64,000 nt of DNA. Origin: Candidatus Latescibacterota bacterium. GTDB taxonomy: Bacteria > Latescibacterota > UBA2968 > UBA8231. The stretch spans positions 1,280,001-1,344,000 of the forward strand of contig CBDETY010000003.1 in assembly GCA_965243025.1 (NCBI GenBank). Reading direction: 5' to 3'. A model generated the notes under the pieces. It was given only the letters and a program-made list of their open reading frames with translations. It did not search any database and was not told the DNA's origin. A program made the translations under genes and the position numbers. Below, piece by piece: positions 23,701-59,130 of the stretch (position 1 is its first letter; the number at the start of each line of letters is the position of its first letter).

Positions 23701-24676
23701 ATGCAGCTGCGCAGCAGGAACAAGGACTGCGGGGCGGTATTCGACAAACCGTTTCCCGTCGGCACCGAGTACTACCGGCCGCCGACGCCGGCGCCGGAGT
23801 TCTGGGACGGCGATTTCCGCCGCATCAGCGCCGCCGGCATGAGCATCGTGCGCGTCTGGTACAGCTGGAACTGGGTCGAGACCCTGCCAAACCGCTACGA
23901 GTTCGACGACCTCGACCTGCTGTTCGACACCGCGGCGAAACACCGGCTCAAGGTGTGGCTCGACACCCCGCTTGGAACCCATATGGCCGCTCCGGCCTGG
24001 ATGCTGCGCGAGCACCCCGACATGCGCGCCGTCTGGCGGGACGGCAGCGTGCAGCAGGACCTGGCCGGGGACTTTTCCCCCCATGGCAGCATGACCCACA
24101 ACTTCGACCACCCGATGTGGCGGGTGTACGTCGAGCGCTACCTGCGCCAGCTGGTGCCCCGTTACAGGGACCACGAGGCGATGGGGATCTGGGGCACCTG
24201 GGACGGGATCAGCTACGCCGCCGCCTGGACCGCGTCCGAGCCGTACCCACCCTACAACGACTACACCATCGCCAGGTACAAGGACTGGCTGTACCGGCGT
24301 TTCACCCTCGACGAGCTGAACGCGAAACTGCTGCGCCGCTACCGCTCCTGGGAGGACGTGCAGCCGCCGCGCAGCAACGCCGCCATCGTCGAGATGCTCC
24401 TGTACCGGCAGTTCCACTTCGAGAACATGGCGGACCATCTCGGCTGGATGGCCGACCTCGTCGACCGACTCGACGGCCGCCACGAGCAGCGCTCGCACGG
24501 GGGCTCCTATCCGATGCCTCACAACGAGACGGTGAGCCCGGTGATCGACAGCTGGGGCCTGTCCCACCACTCCGGCGACCGCCTGACGAGCGGCGATCCG
24601 TACAGCCTTGCCTGCGAGGCCTACGGCTTTCACTGGTGCCGGGCAATGGGGCGGAACGGCCGCTGGTGGAACGAGG
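23701..24676 (+). pseudogene. GH42-like beta-galactosidase, 5' half, interrupted by the transposon
   Basis: GTEYYRPP, WNWVETLPNRYEFDDLD and APAWM motifs. The frame breaks at the target-site duplication and rejoins in frame at 59131. Confidence 0.85.
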
Positions 24677-24741
24677 GGGAATTATCTAGATAACTGCGCA
24701 AGGTAATTTTAGTGATCTCATCCGCGAATTTAAAGAAAATC

Positions 24742-24750
24742 TGGTATAAT
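24742..24750 (+). promoter_or_regulatory. Extended -10 promoter motif (TGGTATAAT) facing into the element
   Basis: Perfect TGnTATAAT inside the terminal IR, mirrored at the right end. Confidence 0.5.
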
Positions 24751-24874
24751 ATAATAGAGAAAATGCAGAGAACCGGACATCCCCCTGTCCCCCTGCTTTA
24801 ACCGGGAGATGGGGGATGTCGGCAGGCTGACCATTCCGGGATGATTCCGTGCTGATCCAGAAGCCTGCCAGATT

Positions 24875-25290
24875 GGCACCCTGAATCGGAAGGCCACCGC
24901 CCTGATCGTGGAGGGATGCGCGGATTCCCCCTGAGTTTCGCAAAGCCGTCGTCGTCGAGGTGAGGAGGGCATCATTCGGTTTGGTCGATAAGATGGCAAG
25001 GCCGGCTGGATCTCATTCCTGGATCGAAAGGCCGGGATCTGATCGAGGAGGGAACCGGGACTCCTGCCTGATCTGAGTCGGCGACTCGCAACCGCATATC
25101 ATGGCGTTCTCATAGTCAGGCAGTCTGCATCCGGACTCGTACGCACGTCCCCCCGGGAAGTCGGCACCGTGGATCGGAGGTGGCCACCACTCTGATCGAG
25201 GAGGGGGATGCCCGAACTCCCCTGAGTCTGCAAATCCGTCGTCGCCGAGGTGAGGAGGAAGTCATCCCGTTTGGTCGACAAGATGGCAAG
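24875..25290. repeat. ~125-bp subterminal direct repeat, two copies (24875-25000, 25163-25290) plus a partial copy
   Basis: Shared CCGTCGTCGYCGAGGTGAGGAGG and GTTTGGTCGAYAAGATGGCAAG blocks. Confidence 0.8.
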
Positions 25291-25479
25291 CAGGTGACGG
25301 AGGATTCTCGGGATTCAGGCTGAGCTTCAGGCGCAACAGGGGAGGCAGCCGGCAGGGATGTCGCCTTGCCGACCATTTGGCATGATTCGCCGCTTCCCTC
25401 CACCAGATGAGAATCGATTCCCGTTCCGCCGGCAATGCGCAAGACGGCAGGCACCGGCAGCGGGATGTCGCCTTGCTGA

Positions 25480-26475
25480 CTATTCGAACAGCTTCGCCCT
25501 TTCCTTCGACCGGTGATGAGTGTAGGGAGTCGGAGGAACCTCCGTCGCCAGCAGATCCCGGTAGGTCAGCCGCTTCCGCATCATCCGCGCGGTCAGGTAC
25601 CTCATCTGCTCGTCGGGGTCCAGGTTGCGGATGTTGTGCCTGCCTGTGATCTCCTTGAGGTATCGGGGCAGATACTTGGGAGACACGTGGTGGTGGGTCC
25701 CGTATATCGTTCGCTTCGCCTTGGCCCAGAACGATTCCATGCCGTTGGTGTGAACATCCCCTCGGACGTATTCATCCTTGTGGTTGACGGTTTCGTGTCT
25801 TCCCCGCCATCCGAAATTATCGCGAAAGACCGGGGCATTGTCGCTGAAAAGGGTGCCCTCCGGGCGTACGTTTTCCTCGGCGAAGGGGAACACGGTCTCG
25901 CGTGTCTCATCAGGAACCACCTTGGCGGCCACGTCGCCGGTTTCCCGGCACCACATTCCGCTCACCGGGGTACTGCCATACCTCCATTTCCAGTGAAACT
26001 TCTTGTCGGCGTGCCTGTTTTTATCGTCTCCGGCGAACCAGGCTTGATCTATCTCGGCTACCCTGCTGCGCAGCGGTTCGGGATCCGGCCAGGCTTCCCG
26101 GATGCGGTGCAGCAGGAACGAGGCCGACGGATACGCCAGATTCAGGTCGCGGCTCAGCTGCCTGGCGCTGATTCCCTTCGGGTGGGACAGGTGCAGGTAG
26201 ACGGCGGTTGCCCATTTCTCCAAGGGGATCTTGGAGTGCGACATGACCGTTCCGGTGCGCACGCTGAAGCGCTTGCGGCAGCCGCCGCACCAGTAGGGCA
26301 TGGGTTTGCGGCCGGGACATTCCGAGACCCCGCCGGAGCGGCCGCAGCGCGGACAGCGTATGGATTCGGCCAGGCCGTCTGAGGTCTTTCCCAATATGAG
26401 CTGTTCGAACCATTCTTCTGCCGTCGTATTGCCTGAAAAGTTTACCGATAACCAGATACCATTGTCATTATCCAT
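25480..26475 (-). CDS. IS1595-family (ISXO2-like DDE) transposase, left arm
   Basis: Zn ribbon CPRCG...YWCGGC, then EIDQ, FSDN and HTNGMESFW catalytic motifs. Confidence 0.93.
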   Translation of the reverse strand: MDNDNGIWLSVNFSGNTTAEEWFEQLILGKTSDGLAESIRCPRCGRSGGVSECPGRKPMPYWCGGCRKRFSVRTGTVMSHSKIPLEKWATAVYLHLSHPKGISARQLSRDLNLAYPSASFLLHRIREAWPDPEPLRSRVAEIDQAWFAGDDKNRHADKKFHWKWRYGSTPVSGMWCRETGDVAAKVVPDETRETVFPFAEENVRPEGTLFSDNAPVFRDNFGWRGRHETVNHKDEYVRGDVHTNGMESFWAKAKRTIYGTHHHVSPKYLPRYLKEITGRHNIRNLDPDEQMRYLTARMMRKRLTYRDLLATEVPPTPYTHHRSKERAKLFE

Positions 26476-26660
26476 TCCGATTGCCTTCGGGCCGTGGAAT
26501 ACCGTACTGGAGACCTGCGGCCCTTACCAAAAAGTGTGATTCACGCTCCCATGGCTGTCCTTTCGGTTTCAGTGGGATGGTGACTCTGCCGGAATGTCAC
26601 CGACAGATGGGACTGGGGAGCGGCAGTGAATCCTGCCGGCTTCCCGTTGCATGTGCCTCT

Positions 26661-26689
26661 AGTGTATTCCGGAAAAATTAAAAAAGCAA
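26661..26689 (-). promoter_or_regulatory. Sigma70-like promoter for the left transposase
   Basis: TTGCTT-17 bp-TACACT on the minus strand, conserved in the right arm. Confidence 0.55.
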
Positions 26690-27339
26690 ATCGACTCCCG
26701 AGTTTTTTCGAAAGAGCTCGTAATAACGGCGGAGAACTTTAGTTTCTGAAGGCGGAGGATGGGGCGGCAGGACAGGGGGAGGGAAGAGGTCGGCGGGGAG
26801 GTGCAGGAAGGCTCGATTCAAGGGGACTGAAGCCGGGGTGCGGCGGTCCCCGGCAGCTGGCGAAAACCGAAAGTCGCGCTGCGATCCCGAGGCGGAAAAA
26901 CACGGGTCTGCGGATAATCGAGAGGACGCGGAGGGGCAAATTCTGAAGCGGCCATCGCCGGGGAATCCGGGAGATTTCAGGAACGGCGCGTCGAGGCGCT
27001 GGCTACGGAATTGCGATGGGAGGGTAGCCCGGAAGCTGACGAACCGGCATGGCCGTGAGTGCTCCCTGGCATGGTCTTTTCTGAGGCCCAAGACCGGCAG
27101 GCTCCATCGGAGCATTTCCCGGTTTCCCGGCTGGAACTAAATCCGTTCGGGGGGCCACAGAAGCCGCACCAATAGGGCATGGGCACTGCGAGGTCTGCCC
27201 CGAAAATCCGCAAGCTGGGCAAAGTTCTGCAAGGATCGACCTGATGGCCTGTTCTTTGATGACAAGTGCGTCCCCCGGGAGCATTCAAAAGAGGAGCACC
27301 CTGACGGTTCTTTTCGTCTCCGGATGGATGAACTCGCTG

Positions 27340-27940: not shown

Positions 27941-28858
27941 CTATCCGAGAATATCGTGAAGGCGAAGATAGATATCCCCTGTCTGCGAAGCGTGTCTCCT
28001 CTTCCTGAGCAGGAGCTCCACAAGCTCTATGCGACCCTCCAGTACCGCCATTAGATCACTACCATCCATAAGAACCATGAGGCGCCTCCCGCTGGAGTGC
28101 TTTCTTACTGCGTCTTCTGAGAAACCGTTTATCGATAGGAATAGACCGAGTGTGTTTTCCAGTTTCGCGCGAAGCTTCTCGCTAAATACGCTGAGGTCAG
28201 GGGACCCTGACTGCTCGTCACGCCACTTGGCTTCGAATAGGAAATCCACTCCCTCGAAAGAGAATGCCCCGTCGAGTTGCTCACCTATGATTCTGAACGC
28301 AGCTTTCGGATCCAAGTCGAAGAGATCAAACAGTCCGAGCATTAGACGTTCGAGGGCGTAACCACGTTCGGTAGGAGTTTGGCTAAGCAGTTTGTAGTAC
28401 TCCTGTCGCAACTCTCCCAGTCGTTTGCTTACGCCTTCATTCCTGAGCCGTTTTTCTAGGCTTCTCCTTCGCCTTTCTTCGATCCGTTCCTGCTCATCTA
28501 CAAGCGCATGGTGGGCTTCCGACAGTTTGGCTAGTGCTTCGACAGCCTCCTTCGCTCGGCTCTCTTTGACTGCTCCGTCCTCAAGTTGTCGCAGGTGAGT
28601 GAAATCTCTTATTCGCGTGACTTCGGAAATGAGCCGAAGTAAGTCGCCCTGATGCTTGTCTTGATCTCGTGCTAGGAACTCGACAAGCGTCGTGACGATA
28701 TTTCGTTTATAGTCTTCCCAATTCAGGCTGGAGAGTATAGCGGGATTGCTGATAGCATTTAGGAGAAAACTCCGGAGATCAGACTTATACCAGTATACAT
28801 GCGTTAGAGCGTGTTTCAGCGCATTGATAGCTGCGGGAGAAATCAATTTGCGTTCCAT
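27941..28858 (-). CDS. Mrr-like PD-(D/E)xK restriction endonuclease with N-terminal helical domain
   Basis: RGYALE...EQLDGAF...FLFEAKW nuclease motif. Visibly lower GC than the backbone. Confidence 0.8.
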   Translation of the reverse strand: MERKLISPAAINALKHALTHVYWYKSDLRSFLLNAISNPAILSSLNWEDYKRNIVTTLVEFLARDQDKHQGDLLRLISEVTRIRDFTHLRQLEDGAVKESRAKEAVEALAKLSEAHHALVDEQERIEERRRRSLEKRLRNEGVSKRLGELRQEYYKLLSQTPTERGYALERLMLGLFDLFDLDPKAAFRIIGEQLDGAFSFEGVDFLFEAKWRDEQSGSPDLSVFSEKLRAKLENTLGLFLSINGFSEDAVRKHSSGRRLMVLMDGSDLMAVLEGRIELVELLLRKRRHASQTGDIYLRLHDILG

Positions 28859-28914
28859 TTAGATCTTTCTGAGTCCTATCGCTACTTGACCTGCCGAAGG
28901 CATGATGTACCTGC

Positions 28915-30084
28915 TAGTGTCCCGTCGCATTAATTCGTTCACAAATCTCTTGATCTTAGCGAGGATGGAATCAGCCGTGGCCGTCCATACGAAGGGGTGG
29001 GCCTTTTGGTTCCAATGGTCTGTGAAGTGCTCAATGCGACGGATCCATTCCTTCACCTTCCTGAAGGAGCCGCGTGGAATCGCCCGCCGCGTGAGGATGC
29101 CGAACCAGATCTCCACCTGGTTTAGCCAGCACGCATAGGTCGGGGTGAAATGGAGGTGGAAGCGGGGGTGTCGAGCCAGCCACTGCTTTACTTTGGCGTG
29201 TTTGTGGGTAGCGTAGTTATCGACTACCAGATGAAGGTCCAGATCCGCCGGCACCTGGTCCTCGATGTGGCGCAGAAACTGGAGAAATTCCTGATGCCGA
29301 TGGCGGGGCTTGCACTGCGCCATGACCTCTCCGCTCTCGATGTCGAGCGCCGCAAACAGGGTGGTCGTGCCATGGCGCTTGTAGTCGTGGGTTACCCCTT
29401 CCACATAGCCCAGACCCAAAGGCAGCAACGGCTGGCTGCGCTCCAGGGCCTGGATCTGGCTCTTCTCGTCTACGCACAACACCAGGGCGTGCTCGGGAGG
29501 GTTCAGATACAGACCGACGATGTCGCGCACTTTCTCCACGAAGAACGGATCGGTGGACAGTTTGAAGGTCTTCTGCCGATGGGGCTGTAAGCCGAAGGTG
29601 CGCCAGATGCGATGCACCGTGTCCTTGGACATCCCCGACGCGGCCGCCATGGAGCGCACCGTCCACTGGGTCTGGTGTTCGGGCTTCTCGTTGAGCGTCT
29701 TGTATACGACCGCCGCCACCTGCTCGTCATCAATGGAGCGGGGCGTCCCCGGACGCAGCCGTCATACAGGCCCATGAGACCTTGCTCCACAAAGCGCTTG
29801 CGCCACTTTCCAACGGTCGCCGGCGAGGTGGACAACCTGCGGGCAATGGCTTGGTTGGGCCACCCGTCGGCGGCCAGCAGAACAATCTCTGCACGACGGA
29901 CGAGACCGTGGGGCGTAGAGCGTGAGCTGGCTAGAGATTGCAATTGCTTTCGAGTCGATTCACTCAATTCGAACGGAGCCAACGGGCGTCCGGATCGCAT
30001 CGTGTCTCTCCTTTGGAAAAGGTCCTTGGAGAAGGATACCTACGACGCGGGTATTATGCTAGTAATTTCTGAGACTATACACTA
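28915..30084 (-). mobile_element. IS630-family insertion sequence with a frameshifted transposase
   Basis: Imperfect IRs TAGTGT...GTC.CA..AATT at both ends, TA duplication in a CTAG target, and DEKSQIQAL, DNYATH and WLNQVEIWF motifs. Apparent 1-bp deletions near 29760 and 28945. Confidence 0.92.
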
Positions 30085-30149: not shown

Positions 30150-31256
30150 CTAGGACGAATCAACAATTCTGACTTGTAGGTTATTGCGACGTTCTGCGTT
30201 TGAAATGGTAGCTACGGTCGCCGAAAGTTGCCCCAGATCGAGAGCCCACCGATCCCCTGTCCCGGAGCTGTAGGGTGGCTTGAAGCCCTTGGGAGAAGGA
30301 TACTCAACCTGTATGTCAGGGTACAATGCCTTCGCGAAGTAGCAGCCGATAGCCTGCAATTTACTGCCGGCGGGGGCCAACAAGATTCGGTGGTTAACAG
30401 ACAAATCCCAGTACAAGCGGGAGACAACTTCCACCGTCTCCCGATAGTCCAACGTGGAGACAACACGCTTTGGTAGTACGGCATTGTGTGTGCCCGAAAC
30501 TACTGGATTATCACCCTCCCACTCTCGTCGAACTTGGTCATGAATCCAGGCGGTAGCCTCCTCACGCCACCTATGGTAGGGAGGTCGACTGTTGATCAGA
30601 AGAAGCCGGCTTGGGTAGACCGTATTCAGGAGAACCTGGGTGAGGGCATCATTGAACGACATGAACACGATCGCCGCGGTCGGCTGCCCCTGCATTGCGA
30701 CACTGGACAGAGAATCAACTCGCACCACACCATGGACCCCGGTAAAAACCGAAACGCTAGGCTGATGAAGCCTCCCCCTCCTCTTCGCGTCCTCGAACTC
30801 CTCTTGGTTGGGCCCATACGCCTCAGCCTCAGCGTACACGATAAATACCTCAACCTGCAATCTGCAACAAACGTTCAAGACAAGGATAATCGCTAGCTTG
30901 GACATAGTTGACACGTCAAGAATCACCCTCCGGGCCCGGCTTCCCTGCAACTTGGCATGCAGACGCGTCTCGAAATCTCCTGGTTCGAAACGGTTGTACT
31001 GAAGGACATCACTGTCTGTAATGGCAACGCCCCGTGCGGCAAGTCGGCCTCGCACCTCCACCAGTCGGTTTCTAGGGTCCTTCGGAACGTAGTCTAACAG
31101 AATCCCCTTCGCGTTCCTTGCGCTGTCCCCGAACATCTCAGGAATTGCCAGCGCTCGATCCTCGAATCCGGGGGCATGAACCAGAACATCCCCATCAAAG
31201 CACTCAACGCTCTTGCATGCCTGAAGGGGGGGCAACAAATCAGCAATTCTGTTCAT
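30150..31256 (-). CDS. Hypothetical protein, possibly two tandem CARF-like Rossmann domains
   Basis: APGFEDRA, VILDVSTMSK and LLAPAGSKLQAIG segments resemble CARF-like strand-loop-K motifs. The fold call is inference. Confidence 0.65.
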   Translation of the reverse strand: MNRIADLLPPLQACKSVECFDGDVLVHAPGFEDRALAIPEMFGDSARNAKGILLDYVPKDPRNRLVEVRGRLAARGVAITDSDVLQYNRFEPGDFETRLHAKLQGSRARRVILDVSTMSKLAIILVLNVCCRLQVEVFIVYAEAEAYGPNQEEFEDAKRRGRLHQPSVSVFTGVHGVVRVDSLSSVAMQGQPTAAIVFMSFNDALTQVLLNTVYPSRLLLINSRPPYHRWREEATAWIHDQVRREWEGDNPVVSGTHNAVLPKRVVSTLDYRETVEVVSRLYWDLSVNHRILLAPAGSKLQAIGCYFAKALYPDIQVEYPSPKGFKPPYSSGTGDRWALDLGQLSATVATISNAERRNNLQVRIVDSS

Positions 31257-31307
31257 CGCGCTCTCTCATCTGGTAATTCTCACGGACACACCACCTCCTT
31301 CAATGCT

Positions 31308-34004
31308 CTATAATCCCTCTCCGTCAGCCCCTTCTTGCAGGTCATCGTATGCGGCATCATGCTCACTCGCCTGCAGGAAGGGCATCACCAACTGGCTTTC
31401 GGGAGTACTAGAGTCCGAACGCCTACTGAAGATGGCATCTTTGAATCGGTCCGGCTCCAACAACAGTTTGATGAAGTCGTCACACTTCAGTTGAACGCTG
31501 TCACGCTTGGACAAAGCAAGCGAACAAAAGGGGAGCAAGAGCCGCCGCAAATACAGGCGGGGGACGAAGGCTCCACGGACACTCTTCCCCCTACTGTCGC
31601 GCATAAAAAGGCCGTACCTCACCAAGTCCACATATACCTCTTGTGCAAGTCCACTAATGCGAAAGTCATCGACGATTTCCATTCGAAACGCCATCCGGGG
31701 CACCTCTCTGTCCAAGGAGCCCTCGGAGATTTGGTATGTGGGCCCGAGCAATAGTTCTCTGGCCGCCGCGACGAAGGCCTCGACAACAGCTTTGAGATGC
31801 TCGCCGTAGGCACCGGCCAGCTGGAAATCGGCCTTGTCCTGCTGGAGAGCTGCTAATGTGTGCTCAACGCGGTTCGGATTGGTCGGTTCGTTGCGAGTTT
31901 GGGAGTCAAGCCACTGGCCTCCACGATTACGGAAGATTCGATCCTGAGTCTCGTCCGGGACAGGTAGGTCAACCTGGGAGGTCTGCTCGTTGTTCGTCTT
32001 GGGCGCGTCATCAACAATGTCCGTCATCAGTTGGATCAAGGTCCGAGTATCCCCGGACCAAAGATCCGCGAATACACTGGCGCCGGTGTAGGTAACACGT
32101 GCTCGCGAGGGGCCCCGACGTTGGGAACTGCCATCAATGGGCACCGGGTTAGACACAATAGGGACCCTTGTCCTCAACCGACGTGCGAATTCAGTCTTGG
32201 AGAAGGGCGTCTTGCCGAGGACGGCTCCGAGGGTGGCGTCTTGATCGGGAACACGCGGATCAAAGGCCAGCCTTCGGGAAAACACCTCCTCGAGGAAGGA
32301 TAGGCGCTCCTCATCCGAAAGAAACAGAGCTTCCTCACCCATGTCGACCAATTGGTAATCGTCTCCGTCCTGCAGCTTTTTACCGCTGGAGTCTTCAGAG
32401 ACAAACGTACAAAAGGCTTCGGTCGCGATCTTGGAGAGGAAGTTTGGAGACCGTTGGAGAAACAGCCGGTTCAGAACTCGCTGCATAGAATGGGAGACTC
32501 GGGGAGTGGAGAAGTCATCGACAAACAAGAGCACTGACCTGTCTCCGAACCAAGGAGAACATGACCTAACAGCGGTGACAAACCTGGTCAGCCATCCAAA
32601 CTGGGCCATGTCCGCAAAGGCAGGGAAAGGCGTAAAGGCGTCATCAAGAAATGTCCACTTGATGTGCTCAACAATTGTTCGATACCGCTCCAATCGGTCC
32701 TCCCCGTCGATCAAGTGGACCTCGTCTGGCGGCACTACCCATCCCTCGACCATCGCAAGGAACTCGTCTGTCACCGGTTCCTGGAGCCGGCCCGTCCGCG
32801 CTGATTGGACGCCAAGCAGATCGGCCAAGACACATAGGTTGGCGTAACAGACCAACCGCTTTTCATCATCCTTCGTAGGTCTCGATGGATAGCGTGAAAA
32901 CACGTCAGCTAGATCGTTGGCATTGACGTACAACGCTACGAATTGGTTCCGCATCGGGAGAGCGGTAACCTCCCCGCACTCCACCACAAGCCGTTCGCTC
33001 AGCCGTCTAAACAGCATGGTCTTACCACAGCCTCGTGGTCCGGTCACAACAGTCGGAATGTCGAGGGCCAAGATCTTGGAACGGGCGGGCACGGTAGGGA
33101 CAAATAGGCGTTCCCACCAGTTCCACCGCTCACCGATCATTTCACTCACTTGGAATTGCCCCACAGACCCCTCTTCAGTGGATGTGTGACCAGGGGCCGC
33201 AGTTTGGAGCGCCGATAGATCGTGCGCTTTCGCCTGTCGCTTCATTTCGAGAAGCGCCTGAAGGAGTTCCCGGGGGCCCCTACGCTCTGATCCTAGATCT
33301 CTCAAGAGTTTTCCCAAGTCTTGGCGAATTCTTAGCAGAATCTTTCGGTCCGTAGCAGTGGTCTTTGAGTAGTCAATATGCTCAAGGATCTTGTTGATGA
33401 TGATCGCTAATCCCTCGTAATCATCCTTGGGCAACACGGCCGCACCTGTTGCTCCGTATCCGAAGTCGGATACAAATACTGGAGCCCGCCTCTGTAGGGA
33501 GTCGTCCAGCATGGTAGCGGAGGCGTCCCCGATGAGGATGTTGCCGGGATGCAAGTCTCCATGGCGAGCAACACCCCTCTCCTGGCAGGAGTTTAGCACG
33601 TGCAAAATGCGCTCAATCACTGAGACGAGGAAGCTTGTGCTGACTTGCTCCACGCGCTGGAGGTGGGCGTTCAAGTTTTCCCCAGGTGGTATGTAATCCC
33701 ATACGGTATACTGACAAAGATGTGTCTCTCCCTGGTGGGTTATCTGTTCAGGGCCTAGTCCGTGAAAGTGAACCACATGGGGAACGAGGTTCAGCAGCAT
33801 GACCTTGTTCAATTCGACCTGCCAGCCGTTTCTCAATTCGTCAAAAATCAGTTTGATTGCCCATGGGGGGCCGGGGAATTCGGTCTGTTCTGCGCGGTAC
33901 ACATAGCCAATCTTGCCGGCTCCGATAAATTCCAGAAGCTTGTACCCATTGACTAGGTGGCCCGATAGGCTGCGTCGCCATTCGTCGGACTGCCTTCTTT
34001 GCAT
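31308..34004 (-). CDS. Ser/Thr protein kinase fused to a P-loop (STAND/ORC-CDC6-like) ATPase
   Basis: Kinase motifs GAGKIG, AIK, HGDLHPGN and DFG, then Walker A GPRGCGKT and Walker B LLFVDD. Start taken at MQRRQS. Confidence 0.85.
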   Translation of the reverse strand: MQRRQSDEWRRSLSGHLVNGYKLLEFIGAGKIGYVYRAEQTEFPGPPWAIKLIFDELRNGWQVELNKVMLLNLVPHVVHFHGLGPEQITHQGETHLCQYTVWDYIPPGENLNAHLQRVEQVSTSFLVSVIERILHVLNSCQERGVARHGDLHPGNILIGDASATMLDDSLQRRAPVFVSDFGYGATGAAVLPKDDYEGLAIIINKILEHIDYSKTTATDRKILLRIRQDLGKLLRDLGSERRGPRELLQALLEMKRQAKAHDLSALQTAAPGHTSTEEGSVGQFQVSEMIGERWNWWERLFVPTVPARSKILALDIPTVVTGPRGCGKTMLFRRLSERLVVECGEVTALPMRNQFVALYVNANDLADVFSRYPSRPTKDDEKRLVCYANLCVLADLLGVQSARTGRLQEPVTDEFLAMVEGWVVPPDEVHLIDGEDRLERYRTIVEHIKWTFLDDAFTPFPAFADMAQFGWLTRFVTAVRSCSPWFGDRSVLLFVDDFSTPRVSHSMQRVLNRLFLQRSPNFLSKIATEAFCTFVSEDSSGKKLQDGDDYQLVDMGEEALFLSDEERLSFLEEVFSRRLAFDPRVPDQDATLGAVLGKTPFSKTEFARRLRTRVPIVSNPVPIDGSSQRRGPSRARVTYTGASVFADLWSGDTRTLIQLMTDIVDDAPKTNNEQTSQVDLPVPDETQDRIFRNRGGQWLDSQTRNEPTNPNRVEHTLAALQQDKADFQLAGAYGEHLKAVVEAFVAAARELLLGPTYQISEGSLDREVPRMAFRMEIVDDFRISGLAQEVYVDLVRYGLFMRDSRGKSVRGAFVPRLYLRRLLLPFCSLALSKRDSVQLKCDDFIKLLLEPDRFKDAIFSRRSDSSTPESQLVMPFLQASEHDAAYDDLQEGADGEGL

Positions 34005-34056
34005 GGTTGCTTGAAGTTTCTCCGGGCCTGGAGTGGGGGAAGGGCTTGGGCAGGGC

Positions 34057-35208
34057 TTAGGGCTTCCTGAATACCAGGACAGTTTCGTTCTTGGTGCCCT
34101 TGCATTTGCGTCTGGAGCGGCGGATGTCGGGAATCTTGTCCTCGTAGACGTGTTCCAGATGAAATTCCTTAAGCATAGGCTCAGTGTCAAATACGGTGTG
34201 AGCGAGAGTCGCCGTGCAACTCGGTCGGCGACGTCCGCGAGTTGAGTCGCCTAGCACTAGGACTATTCGGCCACCGGGGAGCACCTTAGGCCCAATTCGG
34301 GTGCACACCTTGGTAAGGAGTGCGCTGAACGATCGTTCACGGTCGCGGGCCTGCGGGTCGTAATTGCGTGGCAATCTACGTTCATGGAACCATAGGCGTA
34401 GGCGATTGTCCCTTACGTAATGAAGCTCATTCATGTAGGGGGGGCTAGTGATTACGGTTGTGATCTCGCGGAGGGGGGGGAACAGTCGTGCGTCTGTCTC
34501 GACTACCCACCTCCGCTGAAGGAGATGGGCCGGGGGGCGGCGGTATGTTCGTCGTAGCTTCGATTGCAGCCTGTGAAGGACGTCTCGTTGTTCGTACATT
34601 TCGGGGAAAGCGTCCCTTGGGAAGTTTTTGGTGCGGAGATATGGCACAAGATGGCTACTTGGGTAAGAGAGGAATCCTGGTCGCTGATGGTGTAGGATTC
34701 CGAGTAAGCAGGCTAGGAGGAAGTCGTCGTGCCTTTGGACGCACTCGTCGCGGAAAGCAAGGGCGCTTCGGAGCGTTTCTGGATGAAAGAAGGCGCGAAC
34801 CCATTTGGGTATTCGTCGCAGATCCTGGGACATCAGACGTTGGCGAGAGCCTTCCCACACTTCCTGCAATCTGAGGTTGGCACTCTCTATGGTAGGGGGA
34901 GCGAACAACTTTGCCCGGGTAAGCAGCACAGCATATGAATTCCAGTCACCTGCAATCACTTGACGATTGCCTAGTGCTGCCTCGAGAGCTACCACCCCGC
35001 TCCCACAGAAGGGGTCAACGAGGAGGTCGCCAGGGTCTGTATAACGGTCGATGAGTGAGCGAGCCATCGACGTCTTCATTCGGCCAATATATGGTGCCAA
35101 TTGATGGAATGTACAGTCGGTGGCGAGAGTTGACTCCTTAGTCCAGATTGGGCCTTGCTTTGAGCAGGGAAGCACCGGCGTAGTGGATGTACTTGGAAAG
35201 CCTGTCAT
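34057..35208 (-). CDS. DNA methyltransferase, probably N4-cytosine
   Basis: Motif I DPFCGSG precedes motif IV TSPPY. Confidence 0.85.
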   Translation of the reverse strand: MTGFPSTSTTPVLPCSKQGPIWTKESTLATDCTFHQLAPYIGRMKTSMARSLIDRYTDPGDLLVDPFCGSGVVALEAALGNRQVIAGDWNSYAVLLTRAKLFAPPTIESANLRLQEVWEGSRQRLMSQDLRRIPKWVRAFFHPETLRSALAFRDECVQRHDDFLLACLLGILHHQRPGFLSYPSSHLVPYLRTKNFPRDAFPEMYEQRDVLHRLQSKLRRTYRRPPAHLLQRRWVVETDARLFPPLREITTVITSPPYMNELHYVRDNRLRLWFHERRLPRNYDPQARDRERSFSALLTKVCTRIGPKVLPGGRIVLVLGDSTRGRRRPSCTATLAHTVFDTEPMLKEFHLEHVYEDKIPDIRRSRRKCKGTKNETVLVFRKP

Positions 35209-46920: not shown

Positions 46921-46936
46921 ACGCGAAAGGAGACTG

Positions 46937-47412: not shown

Positions 47413-48128
47413 ATGCCGACCGAGGGGTAGGTGCAATCCGTTGCGCCTATCCTTTAGCCGGTAACGAAAATACAGGCAAGCGACGCAGCCTGGAGGGGCA
47501 GTCCTACGATGTTCCGTGTGGACGATTACATCTGCATCACCTGTGAGCCGCCATGGAAATCCGAAGGGCTCGACTGGCCTACATCATCCATCGATTCGGC
47601 CCCCTCTTGGTGAAGCCGACGGACTCCGGCCATTTCGCCGCCTTTCCGGCCGCGACGGCTTGCTGTCCTCCCCGCAGAGAGGAAGCCGCGCGGAAATCCC
47701 CGAATTGTCGAGGAAGGTCATCACCCCGTAGCGGACTACCGCCAGCGACCGGGCTGAGTCCAGGACTCCTTGCAGAACTGTGTTGAGTCGGGGCTCTCAT
47801 TGATGCGCAGGCTGGCCTGACTCAACCGGGGTCAGGCGCTCCCGCAGGACCTCGTTGTCTCGTTCCATCTCCTCAGCAGGTTTCATCCCTCCTCTCCTTG
47901 TCGGGCTCGGTTTCCAAGCCAAATCGTCCGAAATGTCCATTTTCCACCCCCAATTTCCATAAAAAAACCGCCGAAATGGACCTTATTTTCACCGGTTTAT
48001 CACTCATGGGGGAGTTATATTATTGACCCGGTCTTTTCGTGTCGCAGCCGGTTTCCTCGGCGGAATCCCCACGCTTTTCGCAAGTGGGTTGCATCCGCCC
48101 CAGCAACGCACCAAGGGAGATATCTGGG

Positions 48129-50324: not shown

Positions 50325-50461
50325 CCTGGCCGGGAGGGATAACGCCCAAAGTGAACCGGCCCCCGGTGTTGAAGGTCCCGGAGGTTTTCCAATTCCTGAG
50401 GCGGGATGACAGGGGAACCTGGCCGTCTTCGGGACCCCACACCCCAAAAGAGGTAGCTCGG

Positions 50462-52651
50462 ATGAAAAAGCGTTCAGTGTTCCTCATGGCCTGGTTGGCC
50501 GGCGTCCTGATGGCGCAGGAGAGTTTTGCCCAGACGATACCCCCTTTACCCGAAGGCGCCCTCGCCCGCATGGGCAAAGGGAGTATCGGAAAGGGCGACG
50601 GAGGGGTGGCCTGGTCTCCCGACGGCACGCGGCTGGCGGTGGCCAGCATAGGCGGCATCTGGTTGTACAACGCCCGCACCCTGTCCGAATTGGCCCTGCT
50701 CCAAGACCTTGCCTGGTCGGTCCACTCGGTGTCGTTCTCCCCGGATGGTCGGACCCTGGCCAGTGGCAGCAACAGGACAGTGCGGTTGTGGGATGTGGAA
50801 ACCGGGCAAGAAAAGGCCGCCCTCCAAGGACATACGGACAACGTCCGCTCGGTGTCGTTCTCCCCGGATGGCCGGACCCTCGCCAGTGGCGCGGGTGGGG
50901 ACGAGACGATCCGGTTGTGGGATGTGGAGTCCGGGCAGGAAAAGGCGGTCCTCGAAGGCCATGCGGGGGGGATCACCTCGGTGTCGTTCTCCCCGGATAG
51001 CCGGACCCTGGTCAGTGGCAGTTACGACCAGACGGTGCGGTTGTGGGATGTGGAAACGGGGCAGGAAAAGGCGGTCCTCGAAGGCCATACGCAAACGGTC
51101 ACTTCGGTGTCGTTCTCCCGGGATGGTCAGACCCTGGCCAGTGGCAGTTGGGACGAGACGGTGCGGTTGTGGGAGGTGGAGACCGGGCAAGAAAACGCCG
51201 TCCTTGGCCAGAGGTGGGTCTACTCGGTGTCGTTCTCCCCGGATGGTGGGACCCTGGCCAGTGGAAATGGGGACGGGACCATTCGATTGTGGGACGTGGC
51301 CAGCGGCCAGGAACAGGCCGTCCTCCAAGGCCATGCGCAAGCGGTCGCCTGGGCGCGGTTCTCCCCGGATGGTCAAAGCCTGGCCAGTGGCAGTTGGGAC
51401 GAGACGGTGCGGTTGTGGGAGGTGGAAACCGGGCAGCAAACAGCCGTCCTCCAAGACCATTCGGGTTTGGTCAACTCGGTGTCGTTCTCCCCGGATGGTC
51501 AAAGCCTGGCCAGTGGCAGTTGGGACCAGACGGTGCGGTTGTGGGAGGTGGAGACCGGGCGGCTGAAGGCCCACCTCCAAGGCCATACGCATAGGGTCAA
51601 CTCGGTGTCGTTCTCCCCGGATGGCCAGACCCTGGCCAGTGGCAGTGGGGACGAGACGGTGCGATTGTGGGATGTGGCCAGCGGCCAGGAACAGGCCGTC
51701 CTCGAAGGCCATTCGGACAGGATCCATTCGGTGTCCTTTTCGCCGGACGGTCAGACCCTGGCCAGTGGCAGTGATGGCGGGACGGTGTGGTTGTGGGAAA
51801 TGGAGTCAGGGCAAGAACAGGCCGTCCTCGAAGGCCATTCGGACAGGATCCTCTCGGTGTCGTTCTCCCCGAATGGTCGGACTCTGGGCAGTGGCAGTGC
51901 TGACGAGACGGTGCGATTGTGGGATGTGGCCAGCGGCCAGGAACAGGCCGTCCTCCAAGGCCATACGCATTGGGTCAACTCGGTGTCGTTCTCCCCGAAT
52001 GGTCGGACTCTGGGCAGTGGCAGTGCTGACGAGACGGTGCGATTGTGGGATGTGGCCAGCGGCCAGGAACAGGCCGTCCTCCAAGGCCATACGCATTGGG
52101 TCAACTCGGTGTCGTTTTCGCCGGATGGTCAGACCCTGGCCAGTGGCAGTTCGGACGAGACGGTGCGGTTGTGGGATGTGGAGACCGGGCAAGAAAAGGC
52201 CACCCGCTACCATACGTGGGGTGTCAACTCGGTGTCGTTTTCGCCGGATGGGCAGATTTTGGCCAGTGGCAGTGGGGACGGCACGATTCTGCTGTGGGAC
52301 ATGGCGCCCTACGTCCCCCCCATTACCGCGGTCGAAACCCTTTCTGCCTCGCTGCCGGCCTCGACGGCGCTGCTGGCCAACTATCCCAACCCCTTCAACC
52401 CCGACACCTGGATTCCCTTTCAACTGCTCGAGCCGGCCCCGGTGCGCCTGAGCATCTACGACGCCCGGGGGGCGCTGGTCCGGGAAATCGATGTGGGTCA
52501 TCGGGCGGCGGGTCAGTACCTGACCAGCGCCGGCGCCCTCCGGTGGGACGGCCGCGATCAGCGCGGCCAGCGGGTCGCCAGCGGAGTGTATCTGTATCGG
52601 TTGCAGGCCGGCCGGTTCGCCCAGGTGCGCAGGATGCTCCTTCTCAAATAG
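50462..52651 (+). CDS. Secreted WD40-repeat protein (14 repeats) with C-terminal FlgD-like domain
   Basis: Same architecture. C-terminal domain nearly identical to that of the first copy. Confidence 0.92.
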   Translation: MKKRSVFLMAWLAGVLMAQESFAQTIPPLPEGALARMGKGSIGKGDGGVAWSPDGTRLAVASIGGIWLYNARTLSELALLQDLAWSVHSVSFSPDGRTLASGSNRTVRLWDVETGQEKAALQGHTDNVRSVSFSPDGRTLASGAGGDETIRLWDVESGQEKAVLEGHAGGITSVSFSPDSRTLVSGSYDQTVRLWDVETGQEKAVLEGHTQTVTSVSFSRDGQTLASGSWDETVRLWEVETGQENAVLGQRWVYSVSFSPDGGTLASGNGDGTIRLWDVASGQEQAVLQGHAQAVAWARFSPDGQSLASGSWDETVRLWEVETGQQTAVLQDHSGLVNSVSFSPDGQSLASGSWDQTVRLWEVETGRLKAHLQGHTHRVNSVSFSPDGQTLASGSGDETVRLWDVASGQEQAVLEGHSDRIHSVSFSPDGQTLASGSDGGTVWLWEMESGQEQAVLEGHSDRILSVSFSPNGRTLGSGSADETVRLWDVASGQEQAVLQGHTHWVNSVSFSPNGRTLGSGSADETVRLWDVASGQEQAVLQGHTHWVNSVSFSPDGQTLASGSSDETVRLWDVETGQEKATRYHTWGVNSVSFSPDGQILASGSGDGTILLWDMAPYVPPITAVETLSASLPASTALLANYPNPFNPDTWIPFQLLEPAPVRLSIYDARGALVREIDVGHRAAGQYLTSAGALRWDGRDQRGQRVASGVYLYRLQAGRFAQVRRMLLLK

Positions 52652-52784
52652 CTGGCCGGGGGATAACTCCCAAAGCGAACCCGGCCCCCGGTTTGCAGGT
52701 CCCGGAGGTTATTCAATTCCCGAGGCGGATGACAGGGGAACCCCGGCCGCCTTCGGGACGCCACACCCAAAGGAGGTAGCTCGG

Positions 52785-54992
52785 ATGAAAAAGCGTTCAG
52801 TGTTCCTCATGGCCTGGTTGTTGGCCGGCGCCCTGATGGCGCAGGAGAGTTTTGCCCAGACGATACCCCCCTTACCCGAAGGCGCCCTTGCCCGCCTGGG
52901 CAAAGGGGGTATCGGAGAGGGCGACCGAGGGGTGGCCTGGTCCCCCGACGGCACGCGGCTGGCGGTGGCCGGCGTGGGCATCTGGTTGTACGACGCCCGC
53001 ACTCTGTCCGAAGTCGCCTGGCTCAGAGGCGATGCGGACTATTTCCTCTCATCGGTGTCGTTCTCCCCGGATGGTCAGACTCTGGCCGGTGGCAGTGAGG
53101 ACAACACGGTCCGGTTGTGGGATGTGGAGACCGGGCAGGAACAGGCCGTCCTCCAAGGCCATTGGAGTTCGGTCACCTCGGTGTCGTTCTCCCCGGATGG
53201 TCAGATGTTGGCCAGTGGCAGTTGGGACGAGACGGTGCGGTTGTGGGAGGTGGAGACGGGGCAGGAAAAGGCCGTCCTCGAAGGCCATACGCAAGCGGTC
53301 ACCTCGGTGTCGTTCTCCTGGGATGGTCAGACCCTGGCCAGTGGCAGTTGGGACGAGACGGTGCGGTTGTGGGAGGTGGAGACGGGGCAGGAACAGGCCG
53401 TCCTCGAAGGCCATACGGGTCCGGTCTCCTCGGTGTCGTTCTCCCCGCATGGGCAGACCCTGGCCAGTGGCAGCTATTGGGACTCGTCCGTGCGGTTGTG
53501 GGATGCGGAGACCGGGCAGGAACAGGCCACCCTCCTCCATCCGGAGGGGGTCACCGCGGTGTCGTTCGACCGGGAGGGTTGGACCCTTGCCGGTGCCGGT
53601 ACTGGGGAGGGGATCATTCTAGTGTGGGAGGTGGAGACCGGCCAGGAACTGGCGTTCCTCACAGGCCCTGAGTGGGTGGATGTCACCTCGGTGTCGTTCT
53701 CCCCGGACGGTCAGACCTTGGCCAGTGGCGGTCTGGACCAGAGGGTGCGGGTGTGGGATCTGGAGACCGGGCAGGAAATGGCCGTCCTCCAAGACCATAC
53801 CGATGGGGTCAACTCGGTGTCGTTCTCCCCGGAGGGTCAAACCCTGGCCAGCGGCAACGGGGACGGGACGGTGCGGGTGTGGGATGTGGCCAACCAGGAA
53901 CAGGCCGTCCTTGAAGAGTTATACGGGGGGTGGGTCAGTTCGGTGTCGTTCTCCCCGGATGGGCAGACCCTGGCCAGCAGCCAAGGGGACCGGAGGGTGG
54001 TCCTGTTGTGGGAAGTGGAACCCTGGCAGGAAAAGGCCACTCTCTGTTGCCAGCAGTGGGAGGTCATTTCGGTGTCGTTTTCGCCGGATGGCTCGCTGCT
54101 GGCCAGTGGCCATATAGACGGAACCGTCCAATTGTGGGACATGGCCAGCGGCCAGGAACAGGCCGTCTTCGAAGGCCATACGGACTGGGTCAACTCAGTG
54201 TCGTTTTCGCCGGATGGGTCGCAGCTGGCCAGTGGCAGTCGGGACGAGACGGTGCGGTTGTGGGATGTGGAAACCGGGCAGGAACAGGCCGTCCTCCAAG
54301 GCCATACGGATTGGGTCCGGTCGGTGTCGTTTTCGCCGGATGGTCAGACCCTGGCCAGTGGCAGCAGGGATGGGGGGACCATTCGATTATGGGACGTGGC
54401 CAGCGGCCAGGGACAGGCCGTCTTCGAAGGCCATACGGATGGGGTCAACGCGGTGTCGTTTTCGCCGGATGGTCGGACCCTGGCCAGTGGCAGTGATGAC
54501 TACACGGTCCGGTTGTGGGATGTGGAGACCGGGCAGGAACAGGCCGTCCTCCAAGGCCATTCGGGGTGGGTCTCCTCGGTGTCGTTCTCCCCGGATGGTC
54601 AGATTTTGGCCAGTGGCAGTGGGGACGGCACGGTCTTGCTGTGGGACACGACGCGGTTTGTCCCCGACTCGTCCGTTCCTACTGCGGTCGCCGCAGCCGA
54701 GAGCAGCGCACCGGCGGCCAGCCGCCTGGAGCCGAATCACCCCAACCCCTTCAACGGACGCACCCGCATCTCCTATCGTCTGGCCGCATCCGGCCGGGTT
54801 CGGCTGGAAATCTGCAATGCCCTGGGACAGTCGGTGCGCACCTTGGTGGATCAGGTCCAGCCCGCCGGCGCGTATCGGGTCGTCTGGGACGCCCGCGATC
54901 AGCAGGGCGCCACGGTGGCCGCCGGAGTCTATCTGACGCGCCTGTCATTTCCGGGCGGACGGCAGACGCGCCGGCTGCTCTACCTAAAGTAG
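52785..54992 (+). CDS. Secreted WD40-repeat protein (14 repeats) with a different C-terminal FlgD-like domain
   Basis: Same N-terminus and repeats. C-terminus NHPNPFN...WDARD...AAGVYL is divergent. Confidence 0.92.
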   Translation: MKKRSVFLMAWLLAGALMAQESFAQTIPPLPEGALARLGKGGIGEGDRGVAWSPDGTRLAVAGVGIWLYDARTLSEVAWLRGDADYFLSSVSFSPDGQTLAGGSEDNTVRLWDVETGQEQAVLQGHWSSVTSVSFSPDGQMLASGSWDETVRLWEVETGQEKAVLEGHTQAVTSVSFSWDGQTLASGSWDETVRLWEVETGQEQAVLEGHTGPVSSVSFSPHGQTLASGSYWDSSVRLWDAETGQEQATLLHPEGVTAVSFDREGWTLAGAGTGEGIILVWEVETGQELAFLTGPEWVDVTSVSFSPDGQTLASGGLDQRVRVWDLETGQEMAVLQDHTDGVNSVSFSPEGQTLASGNGDGTVRVWDVANQEQAVLEELYGGWVSSVSFSPDGQTLASSQGDRRVVLLWEVEPWQEKATLCCQQWEVISVSFSPDGSLLASGHIDGTVQLWDMASGQEQAVFEGHTDWVNSVSFSPDGSQLASGSRDETVRLWDVETGQEQAVLQGHTDWVRSVSFSPDGQTLASGSRDGGTIRLWDVASGQGQAVFEGHTDGVNAVSFSPDGRTLASGSDDYTVRLWDVETGQEQAVLQGHSGWVSSVSFSPDGQILASGSGDGTVLLWDTTRFVPDSSVPTAVAAAESSAPAASRLEPNHPNPFNGRTRISYRLAASGRVRLEICNALGQSVRTLVDQVQPAGAYRVVWDARDQQGATVAAGVYLTRLSFPGGRQTRRLLYLK

Positions 54993-56795: not shown

Positions 56796-57105
56796 TTCGC
56801 CCCCAGTGTAATCTAAGCAAAAATCATGCCGGGGCTCGTTGCTTCCCGCATCGACCTTGGGCATTCACGGCCTGCCGGTTTTCGCCAGCTTTCGGGATGC
56901 CCTCCCCTCGTAGTTCCGGGCAGCCAGCACCCTCGGCATCCAGTTCCCTGAACCTCGCAGGCACACCGATCCCGGACTGAGATCCCTCCCCGATCAGCCG
57001 GCAACCTCCTCGCCCTCCCCCTGTCCTGCCGCCCCTCCTCCGCTTCCAGAAACCAAAATTTTCCGCCGTCTTTACCGGCTTCGTTTGAACTAACGCGGAG
57101 TCGAC

Positions 57106-57133
57106 TTGCTTTTTTAATCCAGCGGAATACACT
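57106..57133 (+). promoter_or_regulatory. Sigma70-like promoter for the right transposase
   Basis: TTGCTT-16 bp-TACACT, conserved with the left arm. Confidence 0.55.
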
Positions 57134-57316
57134 AGAGGCACATGCAACGGGAAGCCGGCAGGATCCGCCACCGCTTCCCAGTCCCATCTGTCGGTGACAT
57201 TCCGGCAGAGTCACCATCCCACGAAACCCGAAAGGACTGCCATGGGAGCGTGAATCACACTATTTGTTGAGGGCCTGGTTTCAACACGGTACTCCACGGC
57301 CCGAAGGTCAGTAAGG

Positions 57317-58321
57317 ATGAGTAATGGTAAAAGCATCTCGTTAATCGAATTGTTCAGCATGTTTCCAGATGACGCAACCGCAGAAAAATGGTTCGAAGAA
57401 GACAGATGGGGGAAGACCGTAGACGGCCTGCCCGAATCCATATACTGCCCGCGCTGCGGCCGCTCCGACAGGATCTCGGAATGCCCCGGCCGCAAGCCCA
57501 TGCCCTACTGGTGCGGCGGCTGTCGAAAGCGCTTCAGCGTGCGCACGGAAGGGGGAATGTCCCACTCCAAGATCCCCTTGCGGAAATGGGCCATCGGCGT
57601 CCACCTGTACGAATCCAGACCGAAGGGAATCAGCGCCAGGCAGCTTGCGAGCGACCTCGACCTAGCGTATTCGTCGGCCTTGTTCATGCTGCACCGCCTC
57701 CGGGAAGCCTGGCCGGTTCCCGAACCGCTGCGCAGCAGGATGGCCGAGATAGACCAAGCCTATTTCGCCGGAGACGATGGGAACAGGCACGGCAACAAGA
57801 AGTTTCACCGGAAATGGAAGTATGGCACTACCACCGTGAACGGAGTGCGCTGCCGGGAAACCGGCAACGTGGGCCCCAAGGTGGTCCCTGACGTGACCCG
57901 CGAAACCGTGTTCCCCTGCGCAGAGGAACACGTACGCCCGGAGGGCGCCCTTTTCAGCGACAATGCCCCGACCTTTCGCGATGGTTTCGAATGGCCGGGA
58001 AGACACGAAACCGTCAACCACAAGGATGAATACGTCAGAGGAGAGGTCCATACGAACGGCATTGAATCGTTCTGGGCCAAGGCGAAGCGAACGATATACG
58101 GGACCCACCACCATGTGTCTCCCAAGTATTTTCCCCGGTACCTCAACGAGATCACAGGCAAGCACAACATCCGCAACCTGGACCCCGAGGAGCGGATAAG
58201 GTATCTGACGGCGCGGATGATGAGGAAACGGCTGACCTACCGGGATCTGCTGGCGACGGAGGTTCCTCCGACTCCCTACACTCATCACCGGTCGAAGGAA
58301 CGGGGGAAACTGTTCGAATAG
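57317..58321 (+). CDS. IS1595-family transposase, right arm
   Basis: Same motifs as the left copy. Intact ORF but clearly diverged from it. Confidence 0.93.
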   Translation: MSNGKSISLIELFSMFPDDATAEKWFEEDRWGKTVDGLPESIYCPRCGRSDRISECPGRKPMPYWCGGCRKRFSVRTEGGMSHSKIPLRKWAIGVHLYESRPKGISARQLASDLDLAYSSALFMLHRLREAWPVPEPLRSRMAEIDQAYFAGDDGNRHGNKKFHRKWKYGTTTVNGVRCRETGNVGPKVVPDVTRETVFPCAEEHVRPEGALFSDNAPTFRDGFEWPGRHETVNHKDEYVRGEVHTNGIESFWAKAKRTIYGTHHHVSPKYFPRYLNEITGKHNIRNLDPEERIRYLTARMMRKRLTYRDLLATEVPPTPYTHHRSKERGKLFE

Positions 58322-59130
58322 TCAGCAAGTCGACATCCCCGTTGCCGATGCCTGCCGTCTTCCGCATTGCCGGCGGAACGGGAATCGATTCTCATCTGGT
58401 CTGTGGATGGAAGGCGATCATTCCGAATGGTCGGCAAGGCGACATCCCTGCCGGCTGCCTCCCCTGTTGCGCCTGAAGCTCAGGCTGCACCCTGAGGAAT
58501 CCTCAGTCATCCTGCTTGCCCTCTTGTCGACCAAACGGGATGACTTCCTCCTCACCTCGGGCGACGACGGCTTTGCAGGCCCAGGGGGCTCGCGCATCCC
58601 CTCCTCGATCAGAGCGGTGGCTTCCGGTCCAAGGTGCTGACTTCAGGGGGGAGGTACCTGCGAGTCCGGATAGATCGCAGGATGCAGACTGCCTGACTTT
58701 GAGAACGCCATGATATGCCGCTGCCAGTCCCCGACTCAGATCAGGCAAGAGTCCCGGTTCCCTCCTCGATCCGAGTGGCCTTCCCGATCCGGAATCAGAT
58801 CCAGCTTGCCCCTTGCCATCTTGTCGACCAAAACGGAATGATCCTTCTCACCTCAACGACGGCTTTGTAGACCCAGGGGGCTCGCGCATCCACTCCTCGA
58901 TCAGAGTGGGGGTCGATCCATGGTGCCAATCTGGCAGGCTTCTCCGGTCAGCATGCAATCATGTGGAATTGCCAGCCAGTCGACATCCCCATCTCCCGGC
59001 TATACAGTGGGACAGGTGGTGTCCGTTTCTCTGCAATTTCTCTACTATATTATACCAGATTTTCTTTAAATTCGCGGGTGAGATCACTAAAATTCCCTTG
59101 CGCAGTTATCTAGATAATTCCCGAACGAGG

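Follow-up and report, generated by a model that had tools for sequence, protein, structure and literature searches.

The interrupted gene and the boundaries of the element

The window analysed here, a 64,000-nt stretch of contig CBDETY010000003.1 from the genome of a Candidatus Latescibacterota bacterium (G000), contains a 34,446-bp block at 24677-59122, which we term E1. It interrupts a gene for a GH42-family glycosidase and is flanked by an 8-bp target-site duplication (TSD), GAACGAGG, with the left copy at 24669-24676 and the right copy at 59123-59130. The 5' part of the glycosidase gene is found on the plus strand at 23536-24676 (PF02449 Glyco_hydro_42, 3.7e-23) and the 3' part, in frame with it, at 59131-60305 (+; PF08532 Glyco_hydro_42M, the trimerisation domain). 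In silico removal of 24677-59130 gives one open frame across the joint (...RWWNE running into EIYGSFVGGL), which is 771 aa long when read from the first ATG, at 23536, and 716 aa long from Met56; an earlier annotation of the same DNA from its letters only (the sequence-only reading) had claimed such an in-frame rejoining and a length of about 716 aa, which corresponds to the start at Met56. The two ends of E1 form a terminal inverted repeat that is perfect for 27 nt and 94% identical over 108 nt, the left copy at 24677-24784 (+) pairing with the right copy at 59015-59122 (-). With up to three mismatches allowed, the 27-nt tip has exactly two matches in the window, 24677-24703 (+) and 59096-59122 (-), and the chance expectation was 0 from 100 shuffles. 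The 8-bp duplication and the ends described by the sequence-only reading (27 bp perfect, about 100 bp near-perfect) were thus borne out. The tip of E1 starts GGGAATTAT and the tips of related insertion sequences (ISs) of 1.5-2.8 kb start GGGGATTATATAC; the two are alike and are IS1595-type ends.

Inside each end lies an intact IS1595-family transposase gene that points outward. The left one, arm transposase L, encodes 331 aa at 25480-26475 (-; PF12762 8.2e-31; NF033547 141 bits against a cut-off of 75) and the right one, arm transposase R, encodes 334 aa at 57317-58321 (+; PF12762 1.7e-29; NF033547 135 bits against a cut-off of 75). The two proteins are 79% identical, close to the three-quarters that the sequence-only reading had estimated by eye.

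Two genomes of the same genus, G001 and G002 (the congeners), carry uninterrupted orthologues of the glycosidase gene at 90-92% nucleotide identity. On the intact orthologue of either genome the two flanks of E1 share exactly 8 bp, so that each congener has one copy of the target and no insert. Because of the TSD and these exact empty sites in two congeners, the proposal of a single insertion event can be upheld. Judged from these alignments, the insertion is later than speciation, and each half of the gene retains an open frame, as expected for the recent jump that had been suggested.

Several further observations concern the junctions of E1. About 130 nt at or just upstream of the glycosidase start (23538-23666) are a dispersed repeat with dozens of 80-99% matches in both congeners, and contig depth peaks over 23512-23678 in all four short-read runs; a leader, a promoter cassette and a small mobile repeat are possible identities for it. 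Two runs, X1 and X2, show no cover over the arm-tip bins 24681-25181, though the flank is covered, and contigs X1 record 7 and X2 record 23 match exactly to 24676 and then continue with 88 and 138 letters, respectively, unlike the element. Near-identical strains with an empty allele could give such a pattern, which is taken only as a lead. A promoter-like site on the minus strand (24706-24734; TTTAAA, 17 nt, TAAAAT), which is a consensus match only, is directed outward through the left tip into the flanking gene. A scan of the window with Rfam gave nothing at gathering score and one chance-level microRNA match in the left arm.

Related elements in the same genome and in congeners

Further arms were traced by BLAST of the E1 left arm against the whole genome followed by reading of the flanks. 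Five paired elements were found in G000, E1-E5, with lengths of 34.4, 44.9, 48.5, 40.4 and 186.0 kb: besides E1, these are E2 (1941107-1986021, TSD CTCGTAGC), E3 (4234635-4283179, TSD CGACGCGA), E4 (6017644-6058067, TSD ACCAGAAC) and E5 (G000:C3:852184-1038176, 185,993 bp, TSD CCAACATC), the right tip of which retains about 35 nt of the repeat. In the congeners, members with TSDs were found at 25.9 kb (G001a) and 4.6 kb (G001b) in G001 and at 24.9 kb (G002a) in G002, and the duplication is 8 bp in five of five paired elements of G000 and three of three congener members. Empty sites could be identified for all five elements in both congeners, with an exact 8-bp overlap of the flanks in 8 of 10 comparisons; in both comparisons for E3 the flanks meet to within 2 nt instead. 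All five insertions therefore took place after these species had separated. The sequence-only reading had missed the multi-copy status of the element, but its advice to search for further inward-facing end pairs with 8-bp TSDs and different cargo proved productive, since four more were found in G000 and three in the congeners.

The arms and an inner module of about 5 kb, described below, are shared at 83-97% identity, while the remaining cargo differs between elements (BLAST tables of shared segments were limited to alignments of at least 300 bp or at least 400 bp). Conservation in the congeners is 83-90% over the outermost ~107 nt of the tips. The congener members differ in their ends: in G001a one end has an intact transposase gene and the opposite end just a C-terminal remnant, G001b and G002a are one-ended with respect to the gene, their terminal repeats being 86 and 190 nt long, and the repeats among the three congener members measure 86, 190 and ~540-720 nt. 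From these comparisons, long transposase-bearing arms are evidently not obligatory for the family.

A census of G000 with six tip variants gave 15 tip-like sequences, ten of them in the five pairs, two in a 55-kb pair and three lone. No opposing tip lies nearer than 34 kb to any of the 15. The congener stretches that were examined hold 18 tips, and the only pair within 5 kb is that of the 4.6-kb element. Two identical tips in G002 (G002:C1 958103(-) and 3233153(+)) have the same 8-bp flank, ATGCAATC, but face apart with 2.3 Mb between them, the signature that would be expected from a chromosomal inversion by recombination between elements. A plasmid search returned only relatives at 37% identity or less, annotated as 'IS1595 family transposase'.

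The low GC content of E1 (0.606 against 0.654 for the genome; 0.55-0.62 for the elements overall) and its island-typical cargo would also fit a genomic island moved by an integrase, a conjugative element or a phage, in which the IS1595 arms are incidental. The ends, however, fall precisely on IS1595-type tips and an 8-bp TSD in every paired element here and in all three congener members, there is no tRNA gene in the window, and three models, for relaxase (PF03432), coupling protein (PF02534) and VirB4 (PF03135), the only ones used, gave 0 matches across a genome that is 96% complete. With no conjugation genes, spread between cells would need another vehicle. Matching TSDs and exact empty sites would not arise from an assembly artefact, and the left junction of E1 is spanned without difference by short-read contigs of two runs (X17 record 9, 23666-24759; X20 record 28, 24191-24750), although these runs may stem from the sample from which the assembly itself was made and so are not independent. 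An island or an artefact is in our view extremely unlikely.

The arms are not complete insertion sequences

The left arm (24677-26760) and the right arm (56998-59122; 85% identical to the left over 2,162 nt) were delimited by sliding identity as the homology common to all eight arms of E1-E4. All eight are similar for about 2.1 kb inward from the tip and then diverge at a common inner boundary that has no inner repeat. The inverted, transposase-bearing arms of the sequence-only reading are hence present, but they are nearer to 2.1 kb than to the ~2.5 kb it gave and, in view of the congener members, are not the defining feature of the family. The arm genes are intact in nine of the nine G000 arms examined. 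No conserved small open reading frame (ORF) common to the arms was found in the subterminal region of ~800 nt or upstream of the arm transposase, and a direct motif, GGGATGTCG..., that occurs about three times per G000 arm was considered as a general binding site and dropped, as it is not retained in congener arms.

Two inverted arms, each with an intact transposase, are also the layout of Tn5 and Tn10. An ordinary composite transposon, formed when two complete inverted ISs captured the DNA between them and each still able to move alone, would further account for E1 arms that are 85% alike and whose proteins are not sisters in the maximum-likelihood tree, as if they came from two different ISs. 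E1 resembles Tn5 and Tn10, and also Tn7560 (see below), in that two transposase arms enclose the cargo and the outer ends serve to move the unit as a whole. The arms of composite transposons are complete ISs with inner ends, whereas the arms of the E1 family have none: searches of the window with 18 nt of the tip (up to three mismatches) and with a degenerate 19-nt pattern (up to one mismatch) gave no inner copy, and no inverted copy was visible by eye at the common inner boundary of the eight aligned arms. Nor is there a solo arm among the 15 tips of G000, none of which is paired within 34 kb, and the one close pair among the 18 congener tips belongs to a 4.6-kb element with an 86-nt inverted repeat and a one-ended transposase.

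The ordinary relatives of the arm transposase (38-44% aa identity, in metagenome-assembled genomes of many phyla) are ISs of 1,495-2,796 bp, with tips that start as given above where readable and an 8-bp TSD in both of the two checked. In the 1,495-bp relative the gene begins about 110 nt inside one tip and is directed toward the other tip. In the E1 family both element tips correspond to the downstream end of an IS, relative to the transposase gene, and no arm retains the upstream end of the ancestral IS; therefore the arms cannot be complete ISs. Given the lack of an inner tip copy and of an arm-sized solo copy, the elements would therefore move as units and not as classical composites, and we regard the composite explanation as improbable. 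The sequence-only reading had anticipated both the absence of an inner terminal repeat and arms that are immobile alone, and solo copies of ~2.5 kb with TSDs of their own, which it had named as the mark of an ordinary composite, were not found in G000.

The maximum-likelihood tree also bears on the age of the arms. E2 has two identical arm proteins, E4 a pair of sisters and E1 two that do not group as sisters (a row labelled 'E3inner', with a branch length of 5.09, was in the wrong frame and was disregarded). The arms have therefore been exchanged or homogenised and do not represent two old lineages, and on this pattern the notion that each side has its own ancient arm lineage was rejected. 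The proposal of an old foldback-like unit holds in so far as E1 is not a composite of identical ISs; ancient arms that define the element do not agree with congener members that are one-ended and have short repeats.

An inner module with a third transposase

The conserved inner module of E1 (42509-47467, +) is common to E1-E5 and G001a, in either orientation and at 83-97% identity. It encodes a small XRE-like helix-turn-helix (HTH) protein (42987-43286, +; PF01381 at 19.8 bits, below the cut-off of 23 and therefore weak), a SWIB/MDM2-domain protein (44408-44764, +; PF02201, 1.8e-11), a RadC-like JAB protein (45066-45575, +; PF04002, 6e-42) and a third IS1595-family transposase of 330 aa (45618-46610, +; PF12762 2.7e-33; NF033547 159.5 bits against a cut-off of 75), which has no ends of its own and was overlooked by the sequence-only reading. 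The D, D and E catalytic columns are conserved in all three transposase genes of E1, and in the tree the inner transposase forms a clade separate from the arm transposases. The reading of the module as a nested IS was rejected, as neither module boundary has a tip-like sequence.

The module starts with a promoter-like motif ending TGGTATAAC. A motif of this kind is also found at the tips: in E1 it comprises 29 nt at 24722-24750 (+, directed inward), ends TGGTATAAT and is built around a -10-like element, and it is almost confined to tips and inner-module starts. This distribution suggests a common regulation of tips and inner module, in which the motif would function as a promoter.

The inner paralogue could be the working transposase of the family, with the arm copies redundant or decaying and kept mainly because they carry the ends. 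The ratio of nonsynonymous to synonymous substitution (dN/dS) is 0.14-0.30 for the inner genes against 0.43-0.75 for the arm genes, which indicates stronger constraint on the inner gene, with the reservation that the values come from stop-to-stop frames that include some upstream codons and from a subset of copies (eight arm and five inner genes, leaving out E2L, E2R, which equals E2L, E3L, E4R, E2inner, E3inner and E5inner_b). The inner protein is 87% identical between G000 and G001, a value that parallels the conservation of the tips, whereas the arm proteins are only 52-66% identical across species. All seven inner copies in G000, at least one of them in each of E1-E5, are full length and without stops, and the module opens with the same promoter-like motif as the tips. 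On the other hand, G002a and G001b have TSDs but no inner-type gene, G002 has such a gene only as a truncated copy at 72%, and the arm genes are intact in every G000 arm that was examined. On balance we hold a sole role for the inner paralogue to be possible but rather unlikely.

Cargo

E1 carries more than 20 cargo genes. Among them is a complete type I restriction-modification (R-M) operon on the minus strand at 35402-42141, identified by Pfam and PADLOC (REase_I 5.4e-163, Specificity_I 8.1e-56, MTase_I 2.3e-167), with genes for a YgjP-like protein (35402-36133), HsdR (36130-39144), HsdS (39141-40313) and HsdM (40306-42141). Beside it lies an ORF similar to DNA methyltransferases (34057-35208, -; PF01555; PADLOC MTase_II 1.2e-20). 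An ORF for a CARF-like protein (30150-31256, -), which matches a PADLOC candidate family (PDLC01917, 1.1e-9) and has no Pfam or NCBIfam match, adjoins one for a 960-aa protein that combines a Ser/Thr kinase with an AAA domain similar to ORC/CDC6 (31308-34190, -; PF24389 1.1e-26; Pkinase weak; PDLC01925 CARF_STK_AAA 1.4e-25). The pair (30150-34190) matches a PADLOC candidate (CARF6 families) and may, on these profile matches, be an uncharacterised defence system. An unknown ORF of 305 aa and an IS630-family transposase that lacks its N-terminus occupy 27941-29719 (-; PF13358; NF033545 profile positions 63-297 of 299), and a patch with a GC content of 0.505 (28001-29000), in a genome of 65% GC, coincides with them.

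On the other side of the inner module are three paralogous WD40-repeat proteins (48039-50324, 50216-52651 and 52785-54992, all +), recognised by Pfam and by their repeats. Periodic repeats of 126 bp at 48300-54750, about 30 copies in three blocks, correspond to the WD40 blades of these tandem genes, which are ~2.33 kb apart. A C-terminal sorting tail of the type IX secretion system (TIGR04183, FlgD-like) was matched in the gene at 48039-50324, which was the one of the three scanned for such a tail.

The other elements have cargo of similar character, as seen in ORFs of E2-E5 that are crude greedy longest-ORF picks. E2-E4 carry DndB with Dnd-type partners, GmrSD, Cas genes (GSU0053, GSU0054 and Cas3 HD) and a PLD-helicase, together with an SMC-like ATPase, ankyrin and WD40 proteins and a C25 peptidase. 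In E5, WD40, leucine-rich repeat (LRR) and CARDB proteins abound, although its Pfam tally (95 ORFs) is dominated by overlapping WD40 families that mask other families. Secretion tails were matched in several of the WD40, LRR and ankyrin proteins scanned. Taken together, this cargo (type I R-M, Dnd, GmrSD, Cas, the pair of kinase-AAA and CARF-like proteins, and the WD40, LRR and ankyrin proteins) ties defence islands and eukaryote-like proteins alike to a single vehicle of mobility.

A proposed mode of movement

In light of these data, we propose that E1 is a unit, non-composite transposon of the IS1595 family and one of at least five in G000, with more in the two congeners, and we would give this interpretation, which is drawn from sequence comparison, a probability of about 0.85. 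A DDE transposase of IS1595 type would act on the two outermost terminal inverted repeats, of which ~90-110 nt are conserved across species, would move everything between them and would create the 8-bp target duplication. The arm copies, the better conserved inner paralogue or a combination of the two may supply the acting protein, since the tips are well conserved across species while the arm proteins are not. Movement could be by cut-and-paste or, as reported for small IS1595 members, by copy-out/paste-in through a circle, and the 29-nt motif would tie the expression of tips and inner module to one regulator. Within the genome, the family would then act to shuttle defence islands and eukaryote-like repeat proteins.

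Several points weigh against this proposal. The evidence for movement is comparative throughout. Not every copy is a clean insertion: the tips of the 55-kb pair (G000:C3 3298967 and 3354081) match without a matching TSD, and three lone tips lie at 421246, 3013101 and 4268279 of G000:C3, one of them inside E3, with no partner found for that at 3013101. Such tips suggest rearranged or decayed copies. E5 holds three inner modules and tip-less arm remnants, and it may have grown after insertion or accreted several elements instead of moving at 186 kb. The arm transposases evolve fast and some may be decaying. Finally, the tip pattern gave 0 matches in the metagenome collection, so that the family comes so far from one genus only.

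The family models, the 8-bp TSD and terminal repeats like those of the relatives all place E1 in the IS1595 family. Membership of its ISNwi1 subgroup, which the sequence-only reading had suggested from the end consensus ggnnatTAT, is putative. Because enzyme, ends and TSD are those of this family, the 'undescribed class' of large cargo elements suggested by the sequence-only reading is too strong a term, although the family of large elements it pointed to is real; E1 is a giant form of a known kind of IS1595 transposon and not a categorically new mechanism. Only tentatively would we go further and see in these elements a distinct class of giant bacterial DDE transposons, with conserved, promoter-bearing tips of ~100 nt, a conserved inner operon of control and accessory genes (HTH, SWIB and RadC-JAB), and two diverged IS1595 paralogues (terminal and internal) that cooperate to move tens to more than 100 kb as a unit. 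If so, defence islands and eukaryote-like secreted proteins of this lineage would travel mainly by these elements. The same IS1595 ends and TSD bound units of 25-186 kb, all of which moved after three species of one genus diverged, and this would widen the size range of simple bacterial transposons with a single type of enzyme by one to two orders of magnitude. The tips of ~110 nt and the two candidate transposases also offer a testable system for how a simple DDE enzyme pairs ends that are tens of kb apart.

Comparison with known elements

With its 34,446 bp and its cargo, E1 lies outside the strict definition of an IS, which is about 0.7-3 kb and holds transposition genes only. An 8-bp TSD is stated for the IS1595 family (PMC5704250, PMC12561309). 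MTnSag1 and tISCpe8, passenger carriers also termed 'transporter ISs', have 25-bp repeats, 8-bp duplications and one or few passenger genes, and a circle was reported for MTnSag1 (PMC5704250). They resemble the E1 family in having an IS1595-type DDE transposase, inverted repeats, an 8-bp TSD and passengers between the ends, whereas the E1 family measures 4.6-186 kb and has dozens of genes, tips of ~100 nt, transposases that are often two-ended and an inner paralogue. Both of the smaller elements are about 2 kb long. A circular intermediate is also reported for ISApl4 (712 bp), and the pseudo-compound Tn7560 of the same family has 5.8 kb (PMC12561309). In the literature available to us, IS1595-family elements are small ISs or carry few passengers, and no bacterial IS1595 element of comparable size was found in open-access papers, so that a described case could have been missed.

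Tn7-like elements use a multi-protein TnsABC(+D/E/Q) machinery and have asymmetric ends, unlike the symmetric IS1595-type repeats of E1. Families of the TnsA, TnsB or TnsC type were absent from the general Pfam matches of the scanned E1 ORFs, with no search aimed at Tns proteins. Tn7-like elements are otherwise large DDE transposons with a cargo dominated by defence systems (PMC8649781). Furuta, Abe and Kobayashi (2010) described, by genome comparison, small R-M units that have terminal inverted repeats of 26-65 bp and an 8-bp duplication and for which a relative shows the empty site; one of these units carries a remnant of a COG3677-type transposase (PMC2853133). As described there, these are single R-M systems with short repeats, whereas the R-M system of E1 is one of many modules in 34 kb.

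TnGBS and ICE6013, which are integrative and conjugative elements (ICEs) with DDE transposases, and the Starships are cargo-bearing elements of tens to hundreds of kb that are moved by a transposase or recombinase. ICEs carry conjugation genes, none of which was matched here with the three models, and Starships, like Teratorn, belong to eukaryotes and rely on different enzymes. Teratorn, at 180 kb, is a piggyBac fusion (PMC10175614).

Transposases 38-44% identical to the arm protein were found at loci L048-L126 in metagenome-assembled genomes labelled as many bacterial phyla and as Nitrosopumilaceae archaea, often as several identical copies per genome, which suggests that these relatives form a widely exchanged clade of ISs.

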